NCBI GenBank assembly: GCA_951406725.2
Contig: OX597827.1
Coordinates: forward strand, 66,960,001 to 67,024,000
From: Octopus vulgaris
Lineage: Eukaryota
Length of the DNA: 64,000 nt
Direction: 5' to 3'
A program made the position numbers and the translations under genes. The notes beneath the pieces were generated by a model. That model searched no databases. It saw nothing but the letters and a program-made list of their open reading frames with translations, and was not told the DNA's origin. Below, piece after piece: positions 9,621 through 10,591 of this stretch. Within the stretch, counting starts at the first letter, position 1. Every line of letters begins with the position of its first letter.

Positions 9621-9684
<64 letters not shown>

Positions 9685-9910
9685 ATTAATCAATATAGGG
9701 TGGCAAAAAAATCTTGTAGAATTCTTTTGCCACCAGCGGCCTAGTAGGAAAAAATTAAATAGTCATAGACCATTTTTAAGTTCAACAACAACAATCAAGG
9801 AACGGCCATAATAGGCCCTTCACCCACTAGAAATAACAGCCAAAGCTTCAACCGCAAATAAAAGTTAATTCTGTAAACCAGGAGAAAATTTAAAAAACAT
9901 TTACCTTGTA

Positions 9911-10017
9911 ATTTCTTATACGATATACCGTTTCATCTGCTGATTAATGGTAAACTAACCTGATTAAATTAAATCCAGCCAATCTTCCACAGGCCCTCAG
10001 ATTCTTCAGTAAGAAAT
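9911..10017 (-). ncRNA. Type I hammerhead ribozyme
   Basis: Minus strand: AUUUCUUA-CUGAAGA-AUCUG..CAGAU-GAAAC-GGUAUAUC-GUA^UAAGAAAU; 8-bp stem I. Confidence 0.85.
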
Positions 10018-10400
10018 AGCCCAAGTCGGAACAGATATTTTCACGAGGCATTTCCGACCTTGCCAAGTTTATATCTGACCTAAAATTTTCAAATCGTCGC
10101 ACTCGCGCCAAATTTATCGGCAGCAAATAAATATAAGCCGTCGATTCCATTACGGAATTAACCAGAAAATTCATAATTAATCAATATAGGGTGGCAAAAA
10201 AATCTTGTAGAATTCTTTTGCCACCAGCGGCCTAGTAGGAAAAAATTAAATAGTCATAGACCATTTTTAAGTTCAACAACAACAATCAAGGAACGGCCAT
10301 AATAGGCCATTCACCCACTAGAAATAACAGCCAAAGCTTCAACCGCAAATAAAAGTTAATTCTGTAAACCAGGAGAAAATTTAAAAACATTTACCCTGTA

Positions 10401-10507
10401 ATTTCTTATACGATATACCGTTTCATCTGCTGATTAATGGTAAACTAACCTGATTAAATTAAATCAAGCCAATCTTCCACAGGCCCTCAGATTCTTCAGT
10501 AAGAAAT
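10401..10507 (-). ncRNA. Type I hammerhead ribozyme (second tandem copy)
   Basis: Same motif exactly 490 bp away. Confidence 0.85.
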
Positions 10508-10591
10508 AGCCCAAGTCGGAACAGATATTTTCACGAGGCATTTCCGACCTTGCCAAGTTTATATCTGACCTAAAATTTTCAAATCGTCGCA

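Follow-up and report, generated by a model that had tools for sequence, protein, structure and literature searches.

A dispersed tandem hammerhead element of Octopus vulgaris with paired internal start sites, a probable passenger of Penelope elements

Tandem non-coding units joined head to tail, each with a type I hammerhead ribozyme, are known from coral, mussel and axolotl as metazoan non-LTR retrozymes (Cervera and de la Pena 2020, PMC7229834). In these retrozymes, as in the octopus element described here, the units are low in GC and dispersed as dimers to multimers, Penelope elements (PLEs) co-occur with them, and the hammerhead has a short palindromic stem III of the kind seen in dimer-acting ribozymes, a mode of action described for metazoan hammerheads (PMC4209133). 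However, the octopus unit is 490 nt long, whereas the invertebrate units reported there measure ~170-400 nt; its stem II carries an extension of ~60 nt; cleavage and circles, which were demonstrated for the published retrozymes, are here predicted from sequence; and the accessible text of PMC7229834 does not mention inverted, two-armed insertions that start at two fixed internal sites. The Xenopus retrozymes regarded as non-autonomous PLEs (Li, Clavereau and Pollet, bioRxiv 10.64898/2026.07.22.740005) are of the same class and have the same proposed helper, and the consensus lengths in that study (51-972 bp) include 490. According to the available text of this preprint, the PLE link in Xenopus comes from co-occurrence and pLTR homology, whereas here it comes from insertion anatomy, and eight of nine Xenopus retrozyme dimers gave no cleavage in vitro.

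With respect to the presumed helper, the accessible accounts of EN+ PLEs report a tail and an inverted 5' copy (Craig et al. 2021, PMC8557442), and those of Poseidon of Anolis report two internal starts of reverse transcription (Frangieh et al. 2024, PMC11167929), with ribozyme cleavage being unnecessary for insertion of the anole PLE in vitro. The octopus element has in common with them a hammerhead upstream of two internal starts, a tail at one end, an inverted truncated arm and an AT-rich or microsatellite target, but it has no ORF, its tail is 107 nt long as compared with 30-40 nt, and a single 490-nt period is repeated in it up to ten times. Another similar system is Chlamys MRC1, which is likewise non-autonomous and multicopy with head-to-tail insertions; however, as far as PMC8557442 is accessible, elements of the MRC1 type resemble an autonomous family at their 3' end and their clade is described as being without canonical hammerheads. 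What moves animal retrozymes and whether the circle is the template are stated to be open (PMC7229834; bioRxiv 2026.07.22.740005), and so is the origin of the PLE inverted arm and one-sided tail (PMC8557442). The new observation reported here is the strict pairing of two internal starts, designated A and B, in two-armed retrozyme insertions. Paired internal starts in a retrozyme were not found in the literature searched by titles and beginnings of abstracts, and the family may already be catalogued in Repbase-type libraries or in the supplements of bioRxiv 2026.07.22.740005.

Layout, family size and class of the element

The window, by which is meant the whole stretch of 64,000 nucleotides that was analysed, is microsatellite-rich eukaryotic DNA and holds one copy of the element (locus L070; Table 1). 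The first-pass annotation, which was made from the letters alone, had described a tandem element of two near-identical units, and this is what was found: the period is 490/491 and over their overlap the units differ by 3 substitutions and a 1-nt homopolymer indel. The element also lacks credible coding capacity, as claimed there, the longest ATG ORF inside it being 76 aa, and because the unit period varies from 488 to 494 across copies, there is no rolling reading frame. No RT + GIY-YIG ORF lies inside the element, and a search of the unit for Pol III promoter boxes gave no B box and an A-box-like match on the plus strand only.

Table 1. Positions of the element, its parts and related features in the window
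Feature	Positions	Strand	Remarks
Left copy of host duplication (~990 bp)	8693..9680	(+)	flanks the insertion
(TA)n target microsatellite	9601..9684	.	
Whole insertion	9682..10591	RNA sense (-)	1.85 head-to-tail units, one-armed, A-primed
Unit 1	9682..10172	(-)	491 bp, 36% GC, numbered from start site A
Unit 2	10173..10591	(-)	unit positions 1-420, variable inner end at 420
Start site A	9682..9697; recurs at 10173	(+)	RNA position 236 after cut; used by window copy
Start site B	10280..10290; also 9789	(+)	RNA position 129 after cut
107-nt tail between sites B and A	10173..10279; also 9682-9788	(-)	
Long hairpin just upstream (RNA sense) of site A	10190..10225	(-)	kept in 67%-identical subfamily (folds)
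Hairpin just upstream (RNA sense) of site B	10291..10312	(-)	kept in 67%-identical subfamily (folds)
Hammerhead 1, whole	10401..10507	(-)	A17 at 10409; predicted cut 10409/10408
Hammerhead 1, stem I	10507-10500/10408-10401	(-)	
Hammerhead 1, CUGAAGA	10499-10493	(-)	
Hammerhead 1, stem II and long extension	10492-10425	(-)	
Hammerhead 1, GAAA	10424-10421	(-)	
Hammerhead 1, palindromic stem III	10420-10411	(-)	
Hammerhead 2, whole	9911..10017	(-)	layout of hammerhead 1 shifted by 490; CUGAAGA from 10009; A17 at 9919; predicted cut 9919/9918
Predicted cut-to-cut monomer, 490 nt	9919..10408	(-)	candidate circular RNA (prediction)
Right copy of host duplication (~990 bp)	10594..11581	(+)	97% identical to left copy overall, about 99% outside microsatellites
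Subfamily 3 fragment	30023..30166	(+)	3' half of hammerhead and downstream part

The element is dispersed and of high copy number, as had been proposed. A 28-mer across the cut site has 807 exact copies in the 2.8-Gb assembly and its reversed control has 0, and on this ground chance or a local duplication is ruled out as the origin. These 807 matches represent subfamily 1, which includes the window copy. A second subfamily, with loop UGCA and units ~90% identical, has 806 matches, a third (~67% identical) has 65 core matches with one mismatch allowed, and a stem II motif common to all subfamilies has 2,651 matches family-wide. Arrays with as many as 10 passes match the family at 97-99% identity, from which it follows that they are young. 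The absence of protein coding and the low GC (36%) are features of a metazoan non-LTR retrozyme, and the presence of at least two hammerhead units in a row in a protein-free, dispersed element agrees with the retrozyme identity suggested earlier. By its testable features, the window element is thus very probably a retrozyme of this kind. In a related organism (organism D, run X17), the summed contig depth over the unit is 5e4-7e5, a figure which is not a copy number and which points to the family having expanded much further there.

The hammerhead and its conservation

On the minus strand, each unit reads AUUUCUUA-CUGAAGA-stem II-GAAA-CGGUAUAUCG-UA/UAAGAAAU, with the slash marking the predicted cut. 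Both units thus contain a complete type I hammerhead in the layout given by the first-pass annotation, viz. a stem I of 8 bp (AUUUCUUA/UAAGAAAU), a stem II (AUCU/AGAU) with a G.U-rich hairpin extension of ~18 bp followed by GAAA, and a GUA cleavage site, the predicted monomer from cut to cut being 490 nt. The core CUGANGA, the GAAA and UH motifs, the three helices and the open stem I are those that define the type. The G.U wobbles had been suggested to favour minus-strand RNA, and folding of the upstream ribozyme gives -34.9 kcal/mol on the minus strand vs -20.7 kcal/mol on the plus strand, and the corresponding z values for the circular monomer are -4.4 and -3.5 (40 dinucleotide shuffles). 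The Rfam check, which had been proposed as a confirmation, failed to detect the ribozyme: no hammerhead was matched in the window at the gathering score (0 matches), nor was there one among the 20 weak matches in the window at E<=10. The long stem II is the likely cause of this miss.

The earlier description of the motif, although right, overlooked that stem III, CGGUAUAUCG, is a self-complementary 10-mer. Stem III is palindromic in all three subfamilies (CGGUAUAUCG, CGGUGCAUCG and CAAUGCAUUG), and in each of them this 10-mer has a duplex energy between -13.6 and -17.5 kcal/mol and a hairpin energy of about 0. A stem III of this sequence would mark a ribozyme which acts as a dimer. For a transcript with both ribozymes of the window copy, the predicted dimer fold has -180.9 vs -173.5 for two monomer folds, and the unconstrained predicted minimum (-181.8) already contains the inter-unit stem III; the two ribozymes of this copy are therefore predicted to fold as a dimer, and self-cleavage of the unit RNA is plausible.

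Conservation of the fold was examined in 24 ribozymes chosen from the three subfamilies (15 + 9; 59 distinct ones were available). Of 768 cells, 94.9% pair, as compared with 31-48% for controls with slid partners; 8 of the 32 pairs change on both sides (0-1 in the controls), and the covariation is 0.297 vs 0.036-0.084. The two-sided changes are located in stems I, II and III and include a UA/CG swap within subfamily 3, and with three subfamilies they represent few independent events. At N7, the one free position of the core, all four bases occur within subfamily 1, and H17 is A or C. The subfamily 3 ribozyme carries U4C, a change that may lower hammerhead activity. Overall, the pattern of changes indicates that the hammerhead is under selection, its helices being kept by compensatory change down to ~67% identity.

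The unit is present in 20 listed sequencing runs (9 studies, 6 organisms), none of which is on record as RNA. Four runs were examined as contigs, the RNA status of three of them being a guess, and the head-to-tail joint is seen in the contigs of all four, which tandem DNA explains equally well. Three runs show a bulk excess of T>C (19, 15 and 5 places vs 2, 5 and 0 for A>G); this excess, which could be read as RNA editing, is largely accounted for by a genomic subfamily in which positions 245, 260, 304, 321 and 372 show T>C. Two loose contig ends remain, each a single contig without matched DNA and taken from runs (two in all) whose RNA nature is a guess. T>C is the sole kind of difference from the DNA in them, affecting 10 of 12 T in one and 4 of 5 in the other, and they look like A-to-I hyper-editing (A>G) of the ribozyme strand.

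Start sites, insertion anatomy and the Penelope link

In total, 72 insertions of subfamily 1 were read; 40 of these were scored from 824 candidates and are biased to long arrays, and the other 32 are all further loci among the first 100 matches listed for the 28-mer. Two inverted arms are present in 60 of the 72, and the outer ends could be mapped in 57. In 56 of these 57, one arm begins at site A (unit position ~1) and the other at site B (~108), A/A is not seen, and the pairing departs from free choice with p = 4e-16; the classing was by eye, and 6 of the 56 A+B calls (L032, L060, L063, L136, L139 and L143) needed judgement. The second arm maps elsewhere in 3 insertions, and 12 are one-armed. 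The window copy belongs to the latter and is an atypical member, the typical insertion being a two-armed inverted array; site B, from which the second arm starts in most members of the family, is unused in it. The single B/B insertion, L055, has an A piece and a LINE upstream, viz. (at 901-2411) an A arm that ends exactly at site B (1-106) and is followed by a LINE piece. In L143, the A start jumps to position 101, with the tail skipped. These two loci give a hint of interplay between the start sites.

Sites A and B are 107 nt apart, lie 236 and 129 nt, respectively, 3' of the predicted cut (RNA sense), and each is just 3' of a hairpin that is kept in subfamily 3. Insertions of subfamilies 2 and 3 have their ends at the same two sites. 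In subfamily 3 (L192:1650-1670, L186, L176), a short (TA)n is present within the unit right at site B and could pair with the target; in subfamilies 1 and 2 there is at most AT at this site, yet starts at B occur. The first-pass annotation had proposed a reverse transcriptase (RT) running more than once around a circular template and primed at (TA)n. Its (TA)n part is borne out, as the primed ends abut (TA)n in the insertions read, but it lacked the two fixed internal starts, one per DNA end, and the inverted two-armed arrays, and in place of the permuted 5' ends that it had led one to look for, the priming end is fixed at A or B. The arms range in length from ~11 nt to 9.3 units, with as many as ten passes across the cut, and of 234 such passes 231 are unchanged at unit positions 230-245. 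The inner ends are scattered, with 7 of 123 within 10 nt of the cut vs 5.3 expected. Due to this lack of enrichment, run-off at a ribozyme-made 5' end was rejected, and priming at a ribozyme-made 3' end was rejected as the starts are 129 and 236 nt from the cut. No two of the two-armed insertions read have the same junction, and inheritance of the two-armed structure from a source copy was rejected for this reason. Together with the unchanged passes and the scattered inner ends, this favours one continuous template.

A tail at one end, an inverted and variably truncated second arm and a microsatellite target are found in the family as a whole, and the published PLE features cited above include such a tail and two internal RT starts. 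In a GIY-YIG scan of the same genome, 150 of 6,136 candidates were scored. Of two young families to which this led, F1 has two ORFs, the second of 765 aa with RT + GIY-YIG, and F3 has a period of 3,994 bp with copies 99-100% identical. In F3, a CX4CX2C motif precedes the nuclease, which is a Neptune/Nematis feature in the accessible part of PMC8557442. Both families insert in (TA)n and have two end sites, one per arm, 40 nt (F1; L108, L119) and 42 nt (F3; L195, L203, L205, L213) apart. The one-end tail, the inverted arm and the (TA)n target are thus common to the retrozyme unit and these families, although its 107-nt tail is much longer than theirs. On the other hand, 50 GIY-YIG loci and F3 yielded neither an autonomous PLE with unit-like sequence nor pLTR homology to the unit (150 of the 6,136 candidates scored), and no RT ORF adjoins the unit beyond chance neighbours in the loci tested. 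A partner search covering 20 long-ORF loci, F3 and loci with a single ribozyme, these together with 4-5 kb upstream in the RNA sense, likewise gave no homologous autonomous element. The Penelope link raised by the annotation hence stands by insertion anatomy and not by an adjoining RT ORF or an autonomous relative. Based on this signature, mobilisation of the retrozyme by a PLE can be proposed with high confidence, the helper being inferred from the signature and not from sequence similarity.

Some additional features of the PLEs were noted. F1 (L104:1468-5168) and F3 (L213:3693-7437) are young Neptune-like PLEs with a separate upstream ORF of ~466-480 aa that overlaps the RT-EN ORF, and in F1 this upstream ORF has no Pfam match above the cut-off. 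By eye, hammerhead-like motifs with a U3-A8 core are seen in the 3' regions of F1 and F3, and a further PLE family (L074, L118) has a CUGAAGA/CCGAAGA hammerhead-like motif 3' of GIY-YIG with a 4-nt palindromic stem III. At L162:2-1647, a subfamily 2 insertion lies within the (TA)n at the 3' end of an F3 copy, a shared target.

Template, proposed mechanism and surroundings of the window copy

Substitutions per kb number 2.8 within an arm, 3.3 between opposite arms and 11.5 between loci (40 loci), and the same variants recur in the units of both arms, which favours a single template sequence for each insertion. At 53 loci with at least 3 passes, 104 variants are fixed in all passes (93 of them shared, 11 confined to one of the sampled loci), another 93 occur singly and 12, in 10 loci, are mixed. 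Two all-pass variants were traced genome-wide, with 24 matches in 6 loci (four homogeneous) and 8 matches in 4 loci. It would therefore be incorrect to interpret such "private" variants as proof of single events, since both traced variants represent small lineages; they imply at least one monomer stage per lineage, not one per insertion. Within small lineages, as many as 8 passes are homogeneous, and when a new variant fills all units of a two-armed array of 4-10 passes, a one-unit stage, as a circle gives, is implied. Recurring variants (L037, L123) are among the mixed arrays. With variant sharing and the passes across the cut in its favour, and some arrays mixed, an RT running round circular RNA is plausible, as is a 490-nt circular RNA from the unit; if a PLE mobilises the element, its template was probably a monomer circle.

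The alternative of greatest weight, which we nonetheless consider unlikely, is that the PLE primes twice, at A and B, but copies RNA of a long source array, either a linear read-through transcript that stays uncleaved or a multimer circle, with the ribozyme having another or a minor role. Such a template would account for the ordered mix A,T,T,T,T,A at position 107 that is present in both L032 and L036, for variants that L067 and L047 carry in the second unit of each arm, and also for the precise passes across the cut; further, according to the available text of PMC11167929, the anole PLE works in vitro mainly on unprocessed RNA. However, it cannot spread a new variant to all units, many lineages are homogeneous over 4-10 passes, and each lineage would need a long homogeneous master of its own. 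Inherited junctions were also not seen among the two-armed insertions, and index matching between arms is weak overall, the differences not being clearly lower for index-matched units (0.0063 vs 0.0073). Much less probable is that insertions are born with one or two units, as a stray pLTR-like piece, and later grow as a minisatellite by unequal crossing-over, a route proposed in the accessible text of bioRxiv 2026.07.22.740005. The sharing of variants by adjacent or alternate units in one arm of L215, L217 and L230, as DNA-level duplication would give, and similar sharing in L065 are in its favour, but the 93 single vs 12 mixed variants form a star-like pattern, as if the units were made at once, the high identity of arrays of up to 10 passes to the family means that they are young, and both arms are multimeric with one haplotype in common. 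Mobilisation by a LINE of the AP-endonuclease type, with the inverted arm due to ordinary twin priming, has in its favour that LINE RT fragments adjoin some copies (window 11800-13370, L055), but it is highly improbable, since LINE priming begins at the RNA 3' end or tail whereas the starts here are fixed, internal and A/B-paired as in the PLE families, and the unit and the LINE have no 3' end in common.

The account that we prefer, and which we hold to be somewhat favoured by the evidence, is that the element is a young non-coding PLE passenger, whose RNA would cleave itself as a dimer, form a 490-nt circle and be copied from both ends of a cut (TA)n. Under this account, a copy with at least two ribozymes would be transcribed on the ribozyme strand, of which the hyper-edited-looking contig ends may be a hint. 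Neighbouring ribozymes are predicted to pair through the palindromic stem III and to release the monomer, which, by analogy with coral, mussel and axolotl retrozymes, would be closed to a circle, where the lone ribozyme would have only a weak stem III. A PLE protein, possibly a dimer, would then cut (TA)n; one DNA end would be primed at RNA site A and the other at B, each 3' of its conserved hairpin, as the ends observed indicate. Extension of each cDNA would range from 11 nt to over nine rounds, and joining of the two cDNA 3' ends, at a new point each time, would produce an array of two inverted arms in which one end has the tail. In its most specific form, which is put forward tentatively and with less than even confidence, this is rolling-circle double-ended target-primed reverse transcription, in which one PLE dimer makes two concurrent passes on one ribozyme-made circle from two hairpin-marked sites 107 nt apart at a (TA)n break. 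If this form is correct, it will provide direct genomic evidence for circular RNA as a template of retrotransposition in animals; PLE proteins will be acting in trans on a retrozyme that has no pLTR homology; and paired initiation, not later endonuclease resolution, will account for the tail and inverted arm of PLEs. The A/B anatomy makes the link between animal retrozymes and their presumed helper testable. The family is short, young, abundant and ORF-free, with two mapped starts in strict pairs, and the same genome has intact young PLE proteins; it therefore offers a minimal substrate, ready for use in the published in vitro assay of PLEs with circular vs linear RNA, and also a possible small RNA template for PLE-based insertion.

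The window copy has the A arm only, its cDNA, by inference the plus strand, beginning at (TA)n, and its other end is joined to the ~990-bp host duplication. Outside microsatellites, the two copies of this duplication differ by 4 substitutions and 1 indel, and as this divergence resembles that between the two units, the duplication may date from the insertion. The upstream (TTA)n may have been the site of a second break or of strand invasion from which the duplication arose; a later duplication or an assembly artefact is also possible. A large flanking duplication was seen at none of 36 other loci, some of which have only ~600 bp on one side. Directly after the right copy of the duplication, at 11800-13370, is a 5'-truncated LINE of the same family as the LINE piece in L055, with one in-frame stop in its RT ORF and an (AAAATC)n tail. 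A minus-strand open frame at 27219-27767 resembles the C-terminal cysteine-rich end of a Tx1/L1-type LINE ORF2, and local tandem duplications are present in the window at 1448-1829, 5697-5878 and 36081-36186, with periods of 192, 74 and 48, respectively.
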